A stretch of 64,000 nt of DNA from a virus (Duplodnaviria > Heunggongvirae > Uroviricota > Caudoviricetes), in IMG/VR virus record IMGVR_UViG_2579778873_000001, positions 9,557-73,556 of that record. One strand, given 5' to 3'. Position numbers and translations under genes: made by a program. Under the pieces are notes generated by a model, which saw only the letters and a program-made list of their open reading frames with translations, did not search any database and had not been told where the DNA came from. The stretch's first letter is position 1, and every line of letters starts with the position of its first letter. This document shows positions 24,172 to 63,617 of the stretch, piece by piece.

Positions 24172-25353
24172 CACGTACTCTATAAACATTTTTTCAGCTT
24201 GCTCAGGTGACGTTCCTGCCATGACAAGCGCATCAATGAACGCCTGCTTCTTCAGTGCGAACTGATCGGCAAGGCGTTGCTGAAGCTCCTTGTTTTTCTG
24301 CTTCTCTCGTTGCAAGGCCGCTTCTTTTGCAGCCGCCCGTTTTTTCTGTGCGTCTGACAACTTTCTGGCCCTGGTCAATTGGTCACGTAGCTTGTCGATC
24401 TTGCCGTTGTCCTTTGCCAGTTTTGAACTTAAAGCTGCCTGGCGCTTCTGATAGAGTCTCCATTCGCGTTTGGCGGCTTCAACGTTCGTTTTACTGCTAC
24501 GATTGCGATTAAACTCCTTCTCGTCTTCTTTTGAGAAGTGTTTGGTTGTACGGCGGCGATCGTCACCAAATGCAATTTGCGTTGCAGCCTTTTGTAGCGC
24601 ACGAGCAATACTCATTTGCCAACTGGCGGACTGTAACCGCGTCATTGAGTGGATCACGTGTTTACAGGCGACGCCTTGCAGGTTCGGGTTGCGAACTTTT
24701 GGATAGGCGTATTCTTTTGGCGGTGCCAGGGCAAAGTTACCCGCAGTGGCGATGTAACGATACCAGTATTGATGACGACCACAGTCACAATCGAAAGACA
24801 CTCGCCCGGCGCACAGTGATTTAGTGATTTTGAGAGCTGATTTATCGTCTTCTGCGATGTCATCAACCATCTGATCCCATTCTTCAAAGCGTATCCGGAC
24901 GATATGGTGCTGGTGGACGGATATATCCGATGCTTCTACGCGGATATTAATCACATTGTGGCGAAGAGATACGGGGGTAGCTCTTTTGATACCAGATCCG
25001 TCATCCACGGCGTTATTTGCACGCTTAATATCGATTGCCTGGCTGGATGCCACCAGCTGGGCGTATGTGATGCCAGCCGTCTTGCTGTCATATTTTTCGC
25101 GCGTTTTACTCCGTAGCTTTTCGAAACCTTTCAGGTCGTCTCGCGTGAAGAACGTGCCGCCTTTTTTCTTCCCTAACTTGAGAATATCTTCGGCGGATTT
25201 GTTCCTCAGTCTACCTGGCGTCAGCGTCCGGTGAGCTTGTCGGCGCTTACGGGTTTGTTCTTTCCTGATAATCTCGAATAAACGCGTGAAGTCCTTAGAG
25301 GACAGGCCGTCAGTGATATAGCGCCCGTCCTGTTTTTTCAGGAAATCAGGCAT
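24160..25353 (-). CDS. SWIM-type zinc-finger protein with basic coiled-coil C-terminus
   Basis: 397 aa; CxC...CxH pattern (FDCDCGRHQYWYRY...CKHVIH); Lys/Arg-rich coiled-coil tail. Confidence 0.5.
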   Translation of the reverse strand: MPDFLKKQDGRYITDGLSSKDFTRLFEIIRKEQTRKRRQAHRTLTPGRLRNKSAEDILKLGKKKGGTFFTRDDLKGFEKLRSKTREKYDSKTAGITYAQLVASSQAIDIKRANNAVDDGSGIKRATPVSLRHNVINIRVEASDISVHQHHIVRIRFEEWDQMVDDIAEDDKSALKITKSLCAGRVSFDCDCGRHQYWYRYIATAGNFALAPPKEYAYPKVRNPNLQGVACKHVIHSMTRLQSASWQMSIARALQKAATQIAFGDDRRRTTKHFSKEDEKEFNRNRSSKTNVEAAKREWRLYQKRQAALSSKLAKDNGKIDKLRDQLTRARKLSDAQKKRAAAKEAALQREKQKNKELQQRLADQFALKKQAFIDALVMAGTSPEQAEKMFIEYVKKA

Positions 25354-25675
25354 TTTCTATCTCCGGTTCCGCGCTCGCGTAATCACGGATCTTGTTCCTC
25401 AGCCATGCCACATCAGGAAGAGTTAACGTGGTCCCGGCGGGCATTTCTTCCATTTCTGACTCATGGCCCACCAGCACCCGGAATACCCAGCGCAAATCTG
25501 CATTGCCATACGCCCTGTAGGCTGCAAGGTCTGAACGATATACTTCATCAATCTTTATCGTGTACTGGAAATTATCAGAGTGATACTCCGATACCCGCTT
25601 AATCATTTCCTGGTGAAACAGCGCACGAAAAATATCGTCTTCAATGTACCTATCGTCGAGTCTGCTATAGCCCAT
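25346..25675 (-). CDS. Hypothetical protein
   Basis: 109-aa ORF overlapping the next gene by 8 nt. Confidence 0.4.
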   Translation of the reverse strand: MGYSRLDDRYIEDDIFRALFHQEMIKRVSEYHSDNFQYTIKIDEVYRSDLAAYRAYGNADLRWVFRVLVGHESEMEEMPAGTTLTLPDVAWLRNKIRDYASAEPEIENA

Positions 25676-25868
25676 AACAAAGCCTCTCAGTCATAACCTG
25701 GGGGAAACTGTATGCAGGGTGTGAAATGCGAGAAACAGACAGGACACCAGTTCAGGGGGATGTGGTTCATAAATCCCCTCACTGGTGACAAGTGACTTTC
25801 ATTAATCTTTATGCGGGGGCCAGCTTCATTTGCTGGCATTAGATTAAAAATTAAACGGAGTGAATGAC

Positions 25869-26003
25869 ATGGATGTTATCTTCGAATTATTAATGCTAAT
25901 TGATCTGTTTATGAACGCTTCATTGACCACGCAAATACTGGCGTCAATATTTTTGTTACTCTTCTACCTGGTATTGAGGGAGTTAACAAAGCTACTAATG
26001 TGA
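25869..26003 (+). CDS. Unannotated 44-aa hydrophobic peptide (type I toxin-like or small membrane protein)
   Basis: Not in ORF track (under 60 aa). ATG at 25869 with GGAG 8-11 nt upstream; MDVIFELLMLIDLFMNASLTTQILASIFLLLFYLVLRELTKLLM; AT-rich; abuts the stop of the convergent minus-strand gene. Confidence 0.3.
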   Translation: MDVIFELLMLIDLFMNASLTTQILASIFLLLFYLVLRELTKLLM

Positions 26004-26657
26004 TCAAAGTATCACGGTATCTTCATCAACTTCTTTCCCAGTCAGTGCCTTTGGCTGGGAGGTGCCTGCTTTAACTTTTTCATGCCCAATAATGGACAGG
26101 AACGAAGCGAGTATGCCTGTTTTTTGCTCTTTCTCGACTGTACCGGTCATCTGCTCTACGTAATCCGCACTGGCTACATTGTGGTATACGGTCGCGTAGC
26201 AACACAGGATCATCAAAATATGCTCCGGCCTGATATCCTGCCAGTTCACCCGGTAGACTTCTTCTCCGTTACCGTTGTATTCGGTGTCAACGATGGAGTC
26301 AGGGATTTCGAAAGCACCTTTGTTATTTTGCGGCAGGGATAATAGCTTCTGGAGTTTTAACTCTCTGTATCTTTCCATCCCGACGATGATTGCTGCTCTG
26401 CCATCGGCATGACGGGTCTTGAGAGTCACCTGGCTTGCTCCGGTGCCAGCGGAGATCGTTGGCGTAATTTCGTCTACCAGTACCTTAAATTTGCTTTTCC
26501 GCAGGGCTGCTATAGCTGGAGGAATTTTTTGCTTTTGCTCCAATGCTGACGCGGGAAGGGGTTTTACTTCGTTAATAATGAGAGCACCGTCTTTCAGTAT
26601 TGCAGTGAGCATTTGAGGCTTGCTGGTGGTCAGGCTGAATATTGCGATCTTTTCCAT
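26004..26657 (-). CDS. Hypothetical phage protein
   Basis: ORF-track entry 26004..26699; start placed at internal Met (MEKIAIFSL). Confidence 0.45.
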   Translation of the reverse strand: MEKIAIFSLTTSKPQMLTAILKDGALIINEVKPLPASALEQKQKIPPAIAALRKSKFKVLVDEITPTISAGTGASQVTLKTRHADGRAAIIVGMERYRELKLQKLLSLPQNNKGAFEIPDSIVDTEYNGNGEEVYRVNWQDIRPEHILMILCCYATVYHNVASADYVEQMTGTVEKEQKTGILASFLSIIGHEKVKAGTSQPKALTGKEVDEDTVIL

Positions 26658-26680
26658 TGTCCTTCCTCCACGGATGACGG

Positions 26681-26709
26681 ATACAAAAAAAGGCCGCACA
26701 TGGCGGCCT
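26681..26709 (-). terminator. Terminator-like hairpin (minus-strand sense), function unclear
   Basis: aggccgc-acatg-gcggcct with a T-run on the minus strand; lies upstream of the 26657 start, so it may be an attenuator or the end of an unannotated transcript. Confidence 0.3.
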
Positions 26710-26925
26710 GCTTTGGCGTTATGACTCCCTACCGCGCTTCGGCTGAAAGTTAATCGTCAAAAGAACCTTCAACGGGAGCCGTTAGCGCGATGGATTATGT
26801 GCAGTTTGTGATTTCCAAAATAGTGTCAACCACTTTTGGTGGATTTTATTTTTTAACCGAAATTTGGCCTAAATCATGTTTATGTAGTTAATTGTTTTTA
26901 TAACATAAAACTTCATTTTGTTTGC

Positions 26926-27549
26926 ATGAAGGATGGTGTAGTGAAGTTAAGGGCTTTAGGGGCCGCGCTCGCGGCTATGTTGGGATGCGTATCTGCTAAT
27001 ACTGCCAATGCAACTGCGTTACCTGCACAATTCAGGGCAGGGCAGCAGGTTATGAATAACGCTGGTGGAGTTCATTCACAAGCGGCCATTATGGACTTTT
27101 GCAAGAGGGAGGGCATTCCATTACGGCCTGTTGGAACTCAGTTTATTGGTAAAACTGACTTTTGCGTTTTTGCATATACAGCATATCTGACGGACAAAGC
27201 TATAACAAAAACAGGTTATTCAACCAAAGATACTCTTTCCAGATTAAGTCAGGGATGGCAGCAATTCGAAGTGTATCGCCAGCAAGGATTAGGTGAGTTA
27301 TTGCAACCTCTTTTTATGCTTGCGTTGGTGCCAGAGGGGCAGCAATTTTTGGTTAAAAAGGGAATGCTTCGCCAAAGTGATATTGCCGGGTTCGATAGCA
27401 TGATGGCTTATGAGCGCAAACTAACCGAGCAGCGAAATAAAAAACCATCTGCTTCATGTGTGCAAAGTAAAACAGCAGAATACAGTGCAGTAGCCGGGCC
27501 TTTAGCCAAACAAATGGCAGAGCAATGGTGTAAAAAATACGGGCAATAA
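26926..27549 (+). CDS. Predicted lipoprotein, function unknown (cargo)
   Basis: Signal peptide with lipobox LGCVSA; 207 aa. Confidence 0.55.
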   Translation: MKDGVVKLRALGAALAAMLGCVSANTANATALPAQFRAGQQVMNNAGGVHSQAAIMDFCKREGIPLRPVGTQFIGKTDFCVFAYTAYLTDKAITKTGYSTKDTLSRLSQGWQQFEVYRQQGLGELLQPLFMLALVPEGQQFLVKKGMLRQSDIAGFDSMMAYERKLTEQRNKKPSASCVQSKTAEYSAVAGPLAKQMAEQWCKKYGQ

Positions 27550-31120: not shown

Positions 31121-31602
31121 GCAAGATTGATTATCAGGCACTGCGTGAGGCGGCGGAACGTGCAATTCCAGCAATGGAACGCCTGTTAATGTTGCCAGCT
31201 GATGATGATTTGTTAAGTGAACAGGAACTTAAAGATTACGGTGTGGATATTGATGCGCTCAACGCCTTCAAATTTCTGGCCGGACCAGAAACCGTGCTGG
31301 CACTACTGGATGAACGGGAAAGAAACCAGCAGTACATCAAACGCCGCGACCAGGAGAACGAGGATATTGCGCTAACGGTAGGGAAGTTGCGCGTTGAGCT
31401 TGAGGCAGAAAAACAGCGGGCAAAGGATCTGTTTATGGAAAATGCTCGGCTTAAGTCAGGTATAGCCGGTCTGATACACCTCGGTATTCGATATGCAGAT
31501 GTTGATGTCATGAAAATTGCTGGAGATGCCCAGCTTTCTACCCCATGCACTGACAGCATCATAAACAGCATTGCAACAGGCATTCGCATCAAAGGAGAGT
31601 GA
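31117..31602 (+). CDS. Ead/Ea22-like protein
   Basis: N-terminal YQALREAAE signature and coiled-coil; ends in GIRIKGE encoded by a conserved junction sequence. Confidence 0.5.
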
Positions 31603-37458: not shown

Positions 37459-38297
37459 CCACTATTACCAAAGAGCGACTGCTGACAATCAAGCAGTGGC
37501 GCGAAACATACGGACCTGGTAGCAACGTTGTACTGCCAGCAGAAGAAGCGGAAGAACTGGCACGAATTGCTCTGGCATCGCTGGAAGCAGAACCAGTTGC
37601 TTATATTTTCAAACATCCGGCTGGAAAATTATTCTGGGCTTTAACGGATGAAAGCAATAAAGAGCAATCGGACGTTATTCCTGTTTATGCCGCCCCGCCA
37701 GTACCGGTAGTACCTGCTGCATTACCTGAGAACGACGATGAGGACGGGCATGACATTGATTATCTTGAGCCATCTGAAGTTTACGCGCTTGGGCGAACAT
37801 CTGGCTGGAACGCCTGCCGAGCTGCCATGCTTCATAGTGCCGAACCTGTAAGCCAGGCTTACAAGTTGAACGCGCTGGCTGGCAACTCTCCGGTAATTCC
37901 GGATGGTTCAGCGGACATGCTTCGGCGCTGGCTGGCATTTGGCCACGGCATGCAAAATGCAGGATGCCAACTACCTCACAACCTGATTGCGGAAACCGAG
38001 GCCATGCTCGCAGCCGCGCCGCAACTACCCGGCAGTGAACCCGCTACCGTGCCGGGTAAATGGATTCCGGTAAGCGAGCGGATGCCGGAAATGGGTGAAA
38101 AGCAGCGCTATGTATTAGCTGCTGATTTCAAAAATAACTATTGGCCCAACATACCAAACACTCAGGTTGGCGTATATGGCGACTGGTTTGATGATGGCAA
38201 TCCAACGTGGGATGACGGCGACGGCGAAGACCTGCATCTCAAAGAGGTAACCCACTGGATGCCGCTACCAGAACCGCCGCAGGAGGTGAATCAATGA
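37455..38297 (+). CDS. DUF551-domain protein
   Basis: C-terminal WIPVSERMPE...THWMPLPEPP block characteristic of DUF551. Confidence 0.6.
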   Translation: MTTITKERLLTIKQWRETYGPGSNVVLPAEEAEELARIALASLEAEPVAYIFKHPAGKLFWALTDESNKEQSDVIPVYAAPPVPVVPAALPENDDEDGHDIDYLEPSEVYALGRTSGWNACRAAMLHSAEPVSQAYKLNALAGNSPVIPDGSADMLRRWLAFGHGMQNAGCQLPHNLIAETEAMLAAAPQLPGSEPATVPGKWIPVSERMPEMGEKQRYVLAADFKNNYWPNIPNTQVGVYGDWFDDGNPTWDDGDGEDLHLKEVTHWMPLPEPPQEVNQ

Positions 38298-49424: not shown

Positions 49425-50788
49425 TAATCATCCTCCGGCGGTTCTATCGCGATATCATCATCTCCGGCGTCATACCCTGCATCAGATGCATCATAATCAC
49501 CGTAAATTTCAGCCGTTGCCGAAGGGTCAATATCCAGCTCTTCGTCGTTGGCCTCGAATTCTCCAGCTTTACGCTCGCCATTGCGGTCGTAATCTCCGCA
49601 CCCCAATTCTTCAACAATGGTTGCCACATCCGCCCGGCGCTCTGCCAGCCATTGCGGATGGTTAGCCTGAAGCGTTGCAAACTCCCTTGCCTCTTTGTCC
49701 AGCTGTTCATCATCAACATCATTGACGTCAGAAACAGGTGGTTCGAGAAGAGTGATAGCTTTCGCCGCGCGCGCCGCGAGGATAGCCGGGACGCTGACAC
49801 CCTGGCGCTCGATGTATTCAGCAACACCGATATCATCCAGTTCCTCGCGCTCACGCATACGTATAGCGGCGGCGATAACTCTGGCTGCGCGTGCGTCAGC
49901 GCCAATGCGATATTCAATCTCTTTGCCACGCTGTTCGGCCTGTAGGCGTGCTAATTCGAGTTTTTCTCTGGCCTCAGCCTCTTTGAATGCTTGCTGGCGA
50001 GCGCTCTGACGAAGCTTTTCATCCCCCTGTCGCAGCTTTTGTTCGGACTGATAAATAGCTGCCAACCTACTGATAAAATCATTCATGTAGTAGGCCGCGT
50101 CACTGATTAGACCGAGAAGGCGCTGCCCAGGGTGCATTCCTTCTGGCTCTTTATCGCCCAGGGTGTCTATTTCCGCCTGTAGACGTTCGGCCTCCTGATC
50201 AACAATGCTTTGATACTGAAGTGCGCGCTCTTGCGCCATTTGAATTGCTAACCGCAGGTGTTCTTCTGCGCCGTTCTTCATCATATCGCGAGCTACATTC
50301 GTAGTTGGCAATGTGGCACGCTGCACAGCACCGTCAGGGATCATTGCAGAAGATCCCTCAATTTTTGGGGCGCTTTTATCTTCTTCGGGGATCATTTTCG
50401 CCATTTTTTCGCGTAATGATCTCCTGACGGATTCTTTTATCTCATTGTTATTATTTGAATTATTTTCATGATCCGAAGTTTTCTTTCTCGGCATACTTCG
50501 GAAAGAACCTGCGCCCTGCGAATTGTCAATTTCTGTAAATTTTGTTTTTCCTGCACCCTCTTCCTGCTTTTTTGTTGCTCTTCCTGCCCGTTTTTTTTCA
50601 GGTGATTTGGTGCTTTTTTTTGTTGTCTTTACCTGCGACCGCACCTCATTTTTTTTCATATTGAGATGCTTTCTGGCTGTATTGAAGCTAAGGCCATGCT
50701 CCTCACAGTATTCCTTTACAGTGATCCCTTTTTCTTCACGCAACGCTATAAAGCGGGCGCGGTGCTCCTCCCAATTAACCAGACTCAT
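49424..50788 (-). CDS. pacA: Terminase small subunit (PacA-like)
   Basis: N-terminal HTH-like segment, charged coiled-coil middle, acidic C-terminus; position directly upstream of the large subunit. Confidence 0.55.
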   Translation of the reverse strand: MSLVNWEEHRARFIALREEKGITVKEYCEEHGLSFNTARKHLNMKKNEVRSQVKTTKKSTKSPEKKRAGRATKKQEEGAGKTKFTEIDNSQGAGSFRSMPRKKTSDHENNSNNNNEIKESVRRSLREKMAKMIPEEDKSAPKIEGSSAMIPDGAVQRATLPTTNVARDMMKNGAEEHLRLAIQMAQERALQYQSIVDQEAERLQAEIDTLGDKEPEGMHPGQRLLGLISDAAYYMNDFISRLAAIYQSEQKLRQGDEKLRQSARQQAFKEAEAREKLELARLQAEQRGKEIEYRIGADARAARVIAAAIRMREREELDDIGVAEYIERQGVSVPAILAARAAKAITLLEPPVSDVNDVDDEQLDKEAREFATLQANHPQWLAERRADVATIVEELGCGDYDRNGERKAGEFEANDEELDIDPSATAEIYGDYDASDAGYDAGDDDIAIEPPEDD

Positions 50789-51177
50789 AAAGCAACACCA
50801 CGCTTTTTAACGGCGGCATTCCACAGCTTATTCGCCATGTCCACCAGCTCTCGTTGCTCTTTTCGCGCCTGTTCGACTGATTTCCTGCTACAGTTTTTAA
50901 CCAGTAAACTGCCGTATTCAGGGGTTCGCCCACGCACCTTGAACTGATATCCGTTCAGGCCATGCAACCAGTATTTTCGTGGGTAAACGCGATCATCAAG
51001 CTCACAGATTGCCCTGCTTGAACGAACAAAATGACGAATGATGTTAGTTACACTTACCCGTGAAACATGGAGATGAGGGTATTTTTCTTTGGCGAGAATG
51101 GTAATTTCAGTGACTGTCAGATAGCAGTCAGCCCTAATCATGATATCCGCAATTTCTGCGCTGCTGATTTGTTCCAT
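50785..51177 (-). CDS. Late-promoter activator candidate (Lpa-like), by synteny
   Basis: 130-aa ORF at the head of the lpa-pacA-pacB-like operon with an operator 75 bp upstream; named by position only. Confidence 0.4.
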   Translation of the reverse strand: MEQISSAEIADIMIRADCYLTVTEITILAKEKYPHLHVSRVSVTNIIRHFVRSSRAICELDDRVYPRKYWLHGLNGYQFKVRGRTPEYGSLLVKNCSRKSVEQARKEQRELVDMANKLWNAAVKKRGVAL

Positions 51178-54246: not shown

Positions 54247-54332
54247 TGGCGGAGAGTAATGGAATCGAACCATCATCGCTTGCGCAATGGGACGGTTTTC
54301 AAGACCGCTTGAGCACCATGCTCCCTACTCTC
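54247..54332 (-). tRNA. tRNA-like element with Ser-type anticodon loop (UGA); non-canonical, possibly degenerate
   Basis: Acceptor GGAGAGT/ACTCTCC plus G and CCA, anticodon arm CGGT-CTTGAAA-ACCG, long variable hairpin with GCAA loop, T-loop TTCGATT; but 5-nt D-loop and A at position 8. Confidence 0.3.
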
Positions 54333-54474
54333 CGGCCGTTGTGGTGGCCGGTACTGAATCTCCGGCATACGGTGCAGCCAATTAGGACTACGGACGATCA
54401 CCGCTCGCGAAAGGGAAGATTTGCGGCCGCATTTCCCTAACATCCAAGAAAGCTATCGCATCAGTCTGCGAATC

Positions 54475-54574
54475 CACCACAACGTTGAGAACACTGGTTG
54501 TCACGCTGCCTCGCGACATTTATTCATAGATTGGGATATGATCCCGTTACGCCAATGTTCTCAACGTTGTGGTG
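54475..54574. repeat. 19-bp perfect inverted repeat flanking a 62-nt loop
   Basis: caccacaacgttgagaaca (54475-54493) and its reverse complement (54556-54574); right arm runs into a 12-nt copy of the tRNA-Thr 3' end. Confidence 0.5.
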
Positions 54575-54798
54575 CCGGTTACGGTTCCGGCCAGGCCTCT
54601 TCCTCAACGGGGTGTTCTCCATACGGACTACCGTTTATTGGTCGTTCCTGCGGTTTATGTTGTGAAGCCAGATGCTTATCTTCTGGTTGCTTCAAAGAGC
54701 TGCACTTCATCACAACGGTAAGGGTACTTCGTAGGGATTCGAACCCTCTGCCAAGCACGGCGATCTCCGACGTCGCAAAATACCCTTACCTGTTGTGT

Positions 54799-54874
54799 TG
54801 GTGCCGGTTAACGGACTCGAACCGCTGACATCCTGCTTACAAGGCAGGCGCTCTACCAACTGAGCTAAACCGGC
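54799..54874 (-). tRNA. tRNA-Thr (UGU)
   Basis: 76-nt cloverleaf: acceptor GCCGGTT/AACCGGC, anticodon loop CTTGTAA, T-loop TTCGAGT, CCA encoded. Confidence 0.85.
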
Positions 54875-54876
54875 AT

Positions 54877-54952
54877 TGGCGATGGTGGATGGATTTGAAC
54901 CATCGACCCGTTGATTAACAGTCAACCGCTCTAACCGCTGAGCTACACCATC
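54877..54952 (-). tRNA. tRNA-Asn (GUU)
   Basis: 76-nt cloverleaf: acceptor GATGGTG/CACCATC, anticodon loop CTGTTAA, T-loop TTCAAAT, CCA encoded; 2 nt from tRNA-Thr. Confidence 0.85.
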
Positions 54953-55456
54953 ACTTGCCGGGTACGTCTCCGGCGAGGGCTTCCACCTCCGTATGCTTTT
55001 CGGCGCACCGCGCCCTGGCTGCAATTCAGTAACAGGGGATGCATAACCCTGGCTTCCAGCGTGATTAGCGCCTTCAGCATGACGGGATATACCCGTAACC
55101 AACAAACTTTCCCATATACCATCAAGCAATGGCTGTTACGCGGGAGGGACGTAACAGGTAAGGGCGCTGACCAGAAAGACCTGACCCTTCTCATTCATCT
55201 GGTTAATCACACCAGCGCCCTTGCCTGTTATGCCTCCCCGTTCCCTAATACACAGACGGGGACACTCTGCGGTCGATTTTTTGACGGGGGACGACTCATA
55301 CCCCGTGGCGTCAGGCTTCTTAGGCCGCTACCATCATCAGATCATCGTTTGCATTTACTTTAATGGTCGGGTTCTAAACCGCCGCAAAGTCGCTAACCAT
55401 GACGAAAACCCTAAAAAAGCCCACCCGAAGATGGGCAAATACGCTACATCTCACAC

Positions 55457-55533
55457 AAGAAAGAAGCCGACTGCCTGAACTGGATTCACTTTCAAATGCC
55501 CGCTGAAAGGGATCACAAGTCGGCTTCTTTCTT
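55457..55533. repeat. 16-bp perfect inverted repeat (long hairpin) in a gene-free region
   Basis: aagaaagaagccgact / agtcggcttctttctt around a 45-nt loop; no flanking T-run. Confidence 0.5.
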
Positions 55534-56171
55534 GATGCGGCACTCTCTCCGCCCGTCACCGCTCTGTCTCGGTTGTCGCGTTTGCCACGCCAGCCATAAC
55601 GAGGTTTAAAGTCTTTGCACGTTCCCATCACTCGACTGCCGTCTGTGGCTGTTCGTTGCAGCGGGGGTGCCTCCCCCTGGGGATGTCCCCGGCCTTACCC
55701 CATTCTTTCAAGACACAATGCAAGGCCACATCCGCATAGGTGCATTACCGCAACATTAAGGAGACTCAGGGCAAAAGGTAACCGCCACAAAAATCCCTAT
55801 GCCTCCTTAATGTTGAAGATGTGCATTGATGATTAGATGCAGCATGTACCGTTACTCTCTGCCGGACCATCATCAATGAACACCTTAAAAAGACCTTCCG
55901 TGGCTCAACATGTACTGTCGTTTACTCCGCAAAGTGCTCTCTCTGAAACCACTTTCCGCACTAAACCTGCTGAACTTTGGCCTGCACGGTGCCAAAGCGT
56001 GCTCTTGCGTTACTATACTTTTCTAACGCTTTAATTTGTTAAATGCTGGTGGGCGAACAATAACCAATAAGTGACTATCAAGCCCAGCAAGCGAAACGTG
56101 GGTGCCGCCCACCAGCAAGGAAAATTCTATGTTAAGTTACCTTCACAATCAATACATTCGAATCGTAATTT

Positions 56172-56190
56172 TAGATTTCTAACACATTAT
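56172..56190. promoter_or_regulatory. C1-type operator motif (TAGATTTCTAACACATTAT)
   Basis: Overlaps the stop of 56187..57410; oriented toward the gene-free region and tRNA cluster. Confidence 0.45.
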
Positions 56191-63523: not shown

Positions 63524-63617
63524 ACGAACATAGCCCCTTCATAAGCAATGAACCAAAGGAGAGTATGCTCAGTTTGTGATTTCCGTTGTTCTTCCCCCAA
63601 ATGCGGGGGAAGAATTA

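Follow-up and report, generated by a model that had tools for sequence, protein, structure and literature searches.

Introduction

Transcription from the late promoters of bacteriophage P1 needs the late promoter activator Lpa, together with the host protein SspA, and starts late in infection. Nine such promoters are given in the P1 annotation (LPmat, LPpro, LPlyz, LPdar, LPs, LPsit, LP26, LPpmgL and LPpac), and their common form is [a/g]AC-AAGT(G/T)ACTT-N4-TAnnnT, without a -35 hexamer. At LP26/LPpmgL one palindromic box serves both directions, so that the late promoter upstream of gene 26 also fires away from this gene into a small gene. Escherichia phage D6 is a plasmid prophage of the P1 family, and its records contain a hypothetical protein, orf77 (ASR76398.1 / YP_009914754.1), among flanking genes that resemble P1 gene 25 (orf74), the baseplate gene 26 (orf75) and mat (orf78). 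The public record of orf77 gives no function, promoter or membrane prediction. Genes of comparable placement are known from lambdoid phages as morons, which are independent transcription units between late-operon genes. The present analysis concerns the counterpart of orf77 in a closely related element and resolves this neglected 'hypothetical protein' as a defined unit made up of a predicted promoter, a leader and a predicted membrane protein of 44 amino acids.

Results and Discussion

An inserted segment between mat and gene 26

The window, that is, the whole stretch of 64,000 nucleotides analysed here, represents a D6-like phage-plasmid of the P1 family. Positions 25300-26750 are 98.6% identical to Escherichia phage D6 (99.4% for the DNA around the open reading frame, ORF), and the same interval is matched by 119 PLSDB plasmids from E. 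coli, Salmonella and Shigella. The ORF is located in a 328-bp gap separating two minus-strand genes, with the following features:

26004-26657, minus strand: homologue of mat (maturation control; D6 orf78), convergent with the ORF, stop codon at 26004-26006
25346-25675, minus strand: homologue of gene 26 (baseplate wedge subunit; D6 orf75), divergent from the ORF
25676-26003, no strand assigned: whole inserted segment, from the mat stop to the gene 26 start, AT-rich in its ORF-proximal half
25869-26003, plus strand: ORF of 44 codons plus stop (homologue of D6 orf77, PHROG 38362), ATG at 25869 and TGA at 26001-26003
25857-25860, plus strand: Shine-Dalgarno sequence GGAG, 8 nt upstream of the ATG

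A preliminary description made from the DNA letters had placed the ORF between convergent genes and had regarded it as embedded antisense to a larger operon. The first of these statements fits mat and fails for gene 26, from which the ORF diverges, and the second has to be abandoned, as the ORF lies outside any larger gene in a segment of its own. The same description was accurate with regard to the plus-strand ATG with its GGAG motif, the length of 44 amino acids, the AT-richness of the region (35-38% GC versus approximately 48-53% in the flanks) and the coincidence of the ORF end with the end of the minus-strand gene, the stop codon of the ORF directly abutting that of mat.

In more distant relatives (L073-L100), whose Mat proteins are 35-56% identical, gene 26 begins on the mat stop or a few bases past it. 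The stop of mat and the start of gene 26 overlap (ATGA/GTGA) in L073, L078, L090, L099 and L100, while in L097 the mat stop lies a few bases ahead of the gene 26 start without overlap; neither a gap nor a small ORF was found at the mat/gene 26 junction in these relatives. Because the junction has no gap in the more distant elements, the 328-bp segment is an insertion specific to the D6-like clade. Judged from this comparison, the insertion point is exactly the translationally coupled mat/gene 26 junction, and the right edge of the segment is set by the stop codon of the ORF. In P1 itself, mat adjoins res and gene 26 is located elsewhere.

Two further observations concern the gap as such. It is a hot spot for insertions, since a relE/higA module lies between gene 26 and the ORF cassette in several plasmids. 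In addition, D6 orf76, which corresponds to window positions 25712-25795, was considered as a second gene of the segment and rejected, since a 20-bp deletion disrupts it in L009 and the insertion variants lack it.

A 44-codon gene with three diverged alleles

The translation of the ORF, MDVIFELLMLIDLFMNASLTTQILASIFLLLFYLVLRELTKLLM (44 aa), is identical to the commonest allele of the family, which is also that of D6. It matches phrog_38362 over residues 1-44 of 44 (E=1.2e-30), and D6 orf77 and phrog_38362 represent the same gene in the same place between mat and gene 26 with no sequence difference. The peptide had been introduced as unannotated, which is true of RefSeq/PGAP records, where the ORF is left uncalled, and is not true of the phage D6 records and PHROG.

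Three allele classes, all encoding 44 amino acids, were found among diverged plasmids, namely allele A (MDVIFELLMLIDLFMNASLTTQILASIFLLLFYLVLRELTKLLM), allele B (MNIFNKLIDLLNKFISASLTQQVSTSVFLLLFYLVLRELTKLLM) and allele C (MDIFNKLIDLLNKFISASLAKQVSTLVFLFLIYLVLRELTKLPM). Their leaders and 5' halves have strongly diverged in DNA sequence, while the start codon and the 44 codons are kept. In all three alleles, most leader variants retain a GGA(G) core at an unchanged distance from the start codon, and the Shine-Dalgarno sequence is mutated (AGAG, AGTG or TGAG) in a few A-class variants (L012, L020, L030 and L045). The ratio dN/dS between alleles ranged from 0.08 to 0.38 (Nei-Gojobori), with 9 synonymous and 3 non-synonymous changes between the window and L010 and 13 synonymous and 7 non-synonymous changes between L014 and L017. 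The excess of synonymous changes was significant (binomial p = 2e-4, 4e-5 and 2e-3), and variable sites were distributed over codon positions 1, 2 and 3 in the proportion 21/11/31. Word-index searches, for which alleles A and B served as queries, yielded 29 and 17 protein clusters, nearly all of 44 amino acids and differing by conservative substitutions, and recovered no proteins outside the family.

To counter ascertainment bias, D6-like loci were also gathered by means of their Mat protein (n=26). The upstream promoter element described below was present in all 26 of these loci and an intact 44-aa ORF in 25, the remaining one carrying an insertion sequence (IS) in codon 3. Conservation in related elements, which the preliminary description had proposed as a check on the peptide, thus turned out in its favor, both in the constant length of three diverged alleles and in the near-complete set of intact loci. 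A separate, second IS insertion interrupts codon 31 in plasmid CP125072; the IS-disrupted copies are L018 and L042/L070, CP125072 and IMGVR_UViG_2526164631_000025 being the natural plasmids with such a disruption, and because interrupted copies persist, the gene is dispensable for plasmid maintenance. The assembly of L011 (pSa1423-90k) is error-ridden and was left out, and L041 proved to be a chance match of the 18-mer on an unrelated contig.

These data also bear on another alternative, namely that the ORF arose by chance in an AT-rich spacer and is itself functionless. The ORF is short, has no homologues beyond one lineage, is passed over by PGAP and tolerates two IS insertions, all of which would be expected of such a fortuitous reading frame. 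However, a spacer ORF would not readily account for the low dN/dS values with their significant synonymous excess, for alleles that keep exactly 44 codons in spite of strongly diverged 5' halves, or for its integrity in 25 of 26 independently collected loci, and we therefore regard this explanation as extremely improbable. By the pattern of its substitutions, the 44-codon ORF is a real gene under purifying selection.

As to its distribution, 1.84 billion representative proteins were searched with a profile of the family, giving 8 matches that all belong to it, and searches of Pfam, NCBIfam and PADLOC with the three alleles (E up to 1-5) gave zero matches. The cassette was found in 98 of 5426 complete E. 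coli genomes (approximately 2%), always on a plasmid, and a Mat scan of genome contigs returned a single locus. As far as these database searches reach, the ORF family is confined to D6-like elements.

The predicted peptide

AlphaFold2 predicted two helices, at residues 2-16 and 19-43, with a mean pLDDT of 94. The N-terminal half is amphipathic, with a hydrophobic moment of 0.28-0.56, and this amphipathicity is preserved in spite of approximately 60% amino-acid change in that half. The C-terminal half forms one hydrophobic helix followed by the tail RELTKLLM (8 residues, net charge +1), and the GRAVY of the peptide is 0.9-1.5. Taken as structural predictions, these features indicate that the peptide is probably a small membrane protein in which an amphipathic helix precedes a transmembrane helix; the earlier view of a peptide consisting almost entirely of one membrane helix has to be modified accordingly to an amphipathic segment (residues 2-16) plus a hydrophobic one (residues 19-43).

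Among P1 proteins, the holins LydA, LydC and LydD and the antiholins LydB and LydE are similar to the ORF product in being membrane proteins for which late expression is predicted, and lydC, too, lies behind a late promoter of the 'other', in this case the D6, type. Unlike these Lyd proteins, which have 71-109 amino acids, the peptide has only 44, and there is no homology between them. Moreover, the ORF lies outside the lysis cassette, its neighbors being mat and gene 26, whereas lydA, lydB and the peptidoglycan hydrolase gene of D6 are located elsewhere. P1 PmgL, the product of the small gene opposite gene 26, was rejected as a homologue of the peptide, to which this soluble, cysteine-rich protein of 81 amino acids is unrelated.

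A predicted P1-type late promoter upstream of the ORF

Directly upstream of the ORF, in the same orientation, the following elements were identified:

25787-25808, plus strand: predicted P1-type late (Lpa-dependent) promoter, GAC-AAGTGACTT-TCAT-TAATCT
25819-25837, plus strand: leader stem-loop GCCAGC-ttcattt-GCTGGC, at the 5' end of the predicted leader

The -22 inverted repeat AAGTGACTT occupies positions 25790-25798 and is preceded by GAC, as in P1 LPmat, LPs and LPpac; it is followed by a 4-bp spacer (TCAT) and the -10 hexamer TAATCT at 25803-25808. The end of this -10 hexamer is 60 nt upstream of the ATG, a position that is fixed in all alleles, and from this arrangement we infer a transcription start site at approximately 25814-25816. 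In a position weight matrix (PWM) built on the P1 late sites, most of the genuine P1 sites score 17-23 in a leave-one-out procedure. The site upstream of the ORF scored 19.6, the top value of the window and also of the entire D6 genome (91 kb), whose runner-up reached 12.4; the 95th percentile of the best scores in shuffled D6 genomes was 18.7. The genome-wide chance of an equally good P1-type site is approximately 3-4%, a figure in which position and conservation are not counted.

Box and -10 hexamer are invariant in all D6-like loci checked, except for the fourth base of the -10 hexamer (T, A or C), and the leader just downstream of the box diverges widely between alleles. The invariance of the box in spite of this divergence implies that the box is under selection. 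Similarly, in the relE/higA variants the DNA directly upstream is unrelated and homology starts again at the promoter box. In its sequence, the element preceding the ORF cannot be told apart from the late promoters of P1. A search for a TTGACA-like hexamer at a distance of 16-18 bp found none, nor was a sigma-70 promoter found on the plus strand upstream of the ORF; GTGACA at 25785 was considered as a -35 element and rejected, as it is just 12 bp from the -10 hexamer. The relE/higA variants contain TTGACT 19 bp from the -10 hexamer, a marginal match that is absent from the window. The probable operator of the D6 C1 repressor (ATGTTAGAAAACTAATTT) occurs in 6 copies in the window and in none within the gap.

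The situation resembles that of P1 LP26/LPpmgL, where a late promoter upstream of gene 26 likewise fires away from it into a small gene, and the architecture of box, spacer and -10 hexamer is identical in the two. In contrast to the bidirectional box of P1, the box in the window has no usable -10 hexamer on its minus side, and gene 26 of the window has instead a separate, weak candidate promoter of the D6 type 63 bp away. Furthermore, unlike in the P1 genome, the promoter stands in a genome that otherwise uses another type of late promoter, as discussed below.

Antisense RNA, toxin-antitoxin control and interference with mat as possible alternatives

Small hydrophobic peptides of this kind had been put forward in the preliminary description as typical of type I toxins and of small phage membrane regulators. 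According to the former reading, the peptide would be a membrane toxin whose mRNA is checked by an antisense RNA, the pair stabilizing the plasmid. The peptide does resemble Hok, Ldr, TisB, Ibs and Fst in size, hydrophobicity and the possession of a single membrane-spanning segment, and with 44 amino acids (criterion <~60 aa) on a plasmid prophage it is in the expected range. Minimum-free-energy folds in which the Shine-Dalgarno/ATG region is partly paired were obtained for all three alleles, a minus-strand sigma-70-like match (25915->25886) could yield an RNA antisense to the 5' end, and transcripts reading through from mat would likewise be complementary to the ORF mRNA. However, the z-scores of the folds are merely -1.7 to -2.2, and the minus-strand match is at chance level (2 found, 2.1 expected), with no equivalent in alleles B or C. 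An antisense terminator was not found at the ORF, and an Rfam scan of positions 25000-27000 at a permissive E-value returned chance-level eukaryotic families only. The peptide has no match among the Pfam, NCBIfam and PADLOC families, type I toxin families included, and the exhaustive profile search recovered its own family alone. Instead of a sigma-70 promoter, the peptide gene has as its conserved upstream element a predicted activator-dependent late promoter, which would lead to expression during lytic growth rather than to the constitutive toxin mRNA of an addiction module. Thus the type I reading fails because a conserved antisense RNA gene, a constitutive promoter and membership of a toxin family are all missing, and we consider it clearly unlikely. 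What can be kept of the earlier proposal is that the locus is a small hydrophobic phage peptide gene, for which 'small phage membrane regulator' is still a reasonable designation.

In a further alternative, the promoter would be primary and the peptide secondary, in that plus-strand transcription running head-on into mat would tune mat and genes 26 and 25 through antisense RNA or interference. A terminator 3' of the ORF was not found, so that a plus-strand transcript could continue antisense into mat, and mat and gene 26 ancestrally formed one translationally coupled unit. In addition, all alleles retain the leader stem-loop, in an extended form in B and C, where a U-rich tract follows; for allele B, this hairpin and the U-rich tail together have a terminator-like score and resemble an attenuator. 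The covariation test found the core stem of the leader hairpin to be invariant, with zero compensatory changes. Against this alternative, there is purifying selection on the amino acids, the length of 44 codons, the start codon and mostly the Shine-Dalgarno sequence are kept, and the amphipathic character of the N-terminal half outlasts extensive amino-acid replacement. Since a role at the RNA level does not need selection at the protein level, which it would leave unexplained, an RNA-only role is inadequate, and this alternative appears to us very unlikely.

A proposed moron-like late gene

The explanation that we favor, and hold to be somewhat more probable than not, is that of a moron-like late gene, in which a compact unit of promoter and gene for a small inner-membrane protein came to lie by insertion between mat and gene 26 in the D6-like lineage. 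From promoter sequence and predicted structure we infer late, activator-dependent transcription and membrane insertion of the ORF product. During lytic growth, an Lpa-type activator and host RNA polymerase would start transcription near 25815, giving a 54-nt leader with a stem-loop at its start, and translation from the GGAG/ATG signals would yield the 44-aa protein. Its C-terminal hydrophobic helix (residues ~19-36, then RELTKLLM) would insert into the inner membrane, while the N-terminal amphipathic helix would lie at the membrane surface. The function is the least certain step of this scheme; the protein may act as a late modifier of the cytoplasmic membrane, possibly as an accessory of lysis timing (holin/antiholin-like) or as a late exclusion or abortive factor.

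Similar to the morons of lambdoid phages, the gene is inserted between genes that are adjacent in relatives, has a lower GC content than its surroundings and, by sequence, carries a promoter of its own. It differs from them in that its promoter is of the activator-dependent late type, not constitutive in the lysogen, and in that no terminator follows the gene. With these reservations, it would illustrate clearly how a moron can settle precisely where two genes are translationally coupled. Several observations speak against the moron-like explanation. The resident Lpa is of the D6 type (31% identical to P1 Lpa) and the late operons of D6 use another box; no terminator follows the ORF and the lysis genes are not adjacent; the 44 amino acids fall short of canonical holins; and the leader hairpin shows no compensatory covariation.

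Two types of late promoters in the P1 family

The first of these observations concerns the activator, for which the following features of the window are relevant:

50788-51177, minus strand: Lpa (late promoter activator) gene, the only one in the window
26794-26814, minus strand: D6-type late promoter of mat, AAATCACAAACTG ca CATAAT, contrasting with the P1-type promoter of the ORF
25707-25727, minus strand: candidate weak D6-type late promoter of gene 26, ATTTCACACCCTG ca TACAGT

The Lpa protein of the window is 99% identical to that of D6 and 30.6% identical to that of P1, and a second Lpa copy was not found in the window. The late operons of D6 itself have another box, AAATCACAnACTn-NN-YAnnnT, found at 11 sites, which precedes lydA, R, gene 23, prt, ddrB, pmgB, gene 7, mat, the lysozyme gene, darB and upfC. 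These 11 sites score 18.7-29.2, and the next site of the unshuffled genome reaches 12.4; shuffled genomes contain just 2-6 D6-type sites above the reporting cut-off of 11. Consequently, two types of late promoters can be distinguished in the P1 family, the P1 type (AAGTGACTT-N4-TAnnnT) and the D6 type (AAATCACAnACTn-N2-YAnnnT), although the authors of the D6 genome may have described two late promoter types already. The P1 type is represented in the D6 genome by a single site, the predicted promoter of the ORF. Conversely, P1 contains one D6-type box, AAATCACAAAGTA ca TACCGT, located 32 nt upstream of the holin homologue lydC, so that each phage has one gene under the promoter type of the other.

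This reciprocity raises the question of whether the ORF promoter could serve as a heterotypic sensor, fired by the P1-type Lpa of a co-resident phage. A membrane-damaging peptide made by the D6-like prophage would then abort or curtail P1 development, or would tie the behavior of the resident to that of a P1-type phage. Several of the results given above would suit such a role, including the singular occurrence of a P1-type promoter among 11 late operons of the other type, the low identity between the two Lpa proteins in an element with no second Lpa, the invariant box within a strongly diverging leader, and the position of the reciprocal D6-type box directly upstream of lydC in P1. P1-group and D6-group phage-plasmids also share hosts and at times the same isolate, 11 E. 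coli isolates with both having been reported in a bioRxiv survey (10.1101/2025.09.12.675607). On the other side, D6 Lpa might read both types of boxes, the foreign-type promoter could merely mirror a recombinational origin of the cassette, and the peptide is without a match in the PADLOC defence families. Weighing these points, we regard the sensor role as rather unlikely. The more general proposition, suggested by the box sequences, that D6-like and P1-like phage-plasmids may each have a single gene for a small membrane protein that answers to the other's late activator is in our view doubtful to a similar degree. If it were true, late expression of one phage would trigger the membrane-active product of the other, amounting to a phage-triggered suicide or exclusion cassette that reads the transcription factor of a rival; and a functional cross-wiring of this kind would be a simple means by which plasmid prophages residing together in clinical Enterobacteriaceae could interfere or cooperate with one another.

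The candidate promoter of gene 26 has a PWM score of 10.1, which is within the 17 best of the D6 genome and below significance on score alone. In the window its box starts 52 nt ahead of the gene 26 ATG, and a distance of 51-52 nt is preserved in every variant, also where the relE/higA module is inserted.

Late-promoter types in D6-like elements and P1

The D6-like elements possess a late-promoter consensus of their own, AAATCACAnACTn-NN-YAnnnT, which stands 5' of every recognisable late operon and differs from the P1 late consensus AAGT(G/T)ACTT-N4-TAnnnT. Eleven sites of this D6 type are present in the genome of Escherichia phage D6, and in the window the consensus is matched at five positions:

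63582, minus strand: D6-type late promoter
26814, minus strand: D6-type late promoter
22306, minus strand: D6-type late promoter
11099, minus strand: D6-type late promoter
8328, minus strand: D6-type late promoter

More distant relatives have related variants of this promoter 5' of mat. P1 carries only one D6-type box, located 32 nt 5' of the holin homologue lydC, for which the P1 annotation lists no late promoter; the box is also located in L004, one of the loci compared with the window. The D6-type box of P1 is the counterpart of the P1-type box in D6-like genomes.

NC_005856, approximately 31571-31591, minus strand: D6-type late-promoter box of P1, AAATCACAAAGTA ca TACCGT
L004, 24572-24592: D6-type box as in P1

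A hairpin in the mat leader

The mat leader contains a strong terminator-like hairpin, 3' of its late promoter (26794-26814) and 5' of the mat ATG (26657):

26691-26709, minus strand: AGGCCGCCATGTGCGGCCT, then seven T

All lineages examined, the P1-like loci among them, have a corresponding GC hairpin and U-run directly 5' of mat, and the structure could represent an attenuator or an antitermination target. Since the annotated mat start of P1 (2716) would read through the hairpin, this start may have been placed too far upstream.

The junction between mat and gene 26

The 135-bp ORF in the gap between mat and gene 26 has been broken in two independent events by an IS or transposase insertion, in codon 31 in locus L018 (CP125072) and in codon 3 in L042/L070 (IMGVR_UViG_2526164631_000025), and the interrupted copies are natural knock-outs in otherwise intact elements. 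In Cronobacter phage JK004, mat and gene 26 likewise flank an opposite-strand gene (L008 1962-2363), whose soluble-looking product of 133 aa is unrelated to the 44-aa peptide and which therefore indicates that the junction was invaded independently in another lineage; LP26 of JK004 is of the P1 type (AAGTGACTC agca TACAAT).

Several D6-like plasmids (AP027414, CP058619, CP099081, CP122510 and CP137859; loci L013-L017) harbor a relE/higA toxin-antitoxin module in the gap, between gene 26 and the cassette, and in these loci homology to the window restarts at the late-promoter box. The gap is an insertion hot spot.

The D6 record annotates a further small ORF here, which overlaps the candidate gene 26 promoter:

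25712-25795, plus strand: D6 orf76, 27 aa

This ORF is probably not a gene, as a 20-bp deletion frameshifts the CP117014 copy and the relE/higA variants lack it.

Other regions of the window

The tRNA genes for Ser, Thr and Asn (54247-54952) were all placed on the minus strand by ARAGORN, which Rfam confirmed for Thr and Asn, whereas the D6 record annotates the three on the plus strand. The 1.2-kb stretch upstream of them (54953-56186) yielded no credible ORFs and no Rfam matches, and is preceded by a P1-like box:

56142, minus strand: P1-like late promoter with two mismatches, AGGTAACTT aaca TAGAAT

Collinearity with D6 is incomplete between approximately 57400 and 63600. The gene R late promoter lies at 38135 in D6 and at 63582 in the window, and pmgS at approximately 10300 and 57400, respectively, so that the window seems either to lack approximately 20 kb of D6, from darB as far as the tail-fibre region, or to have it in rearranged form.

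The 18-bp motif ATGTTAGAAAACTAATTT, which resembles the P1 C1 operator, occurs six times in the window at up to three mismatches, compared to 0.03 copies expected:

28838, 29483, 34386, 45408, 46821 and 57417: copies of ATGTTAGAAAACTAATTT

One copy lies 5' of the ref homologue and another 5' of pmgS, and the motif is probably the C1 operator of D6.
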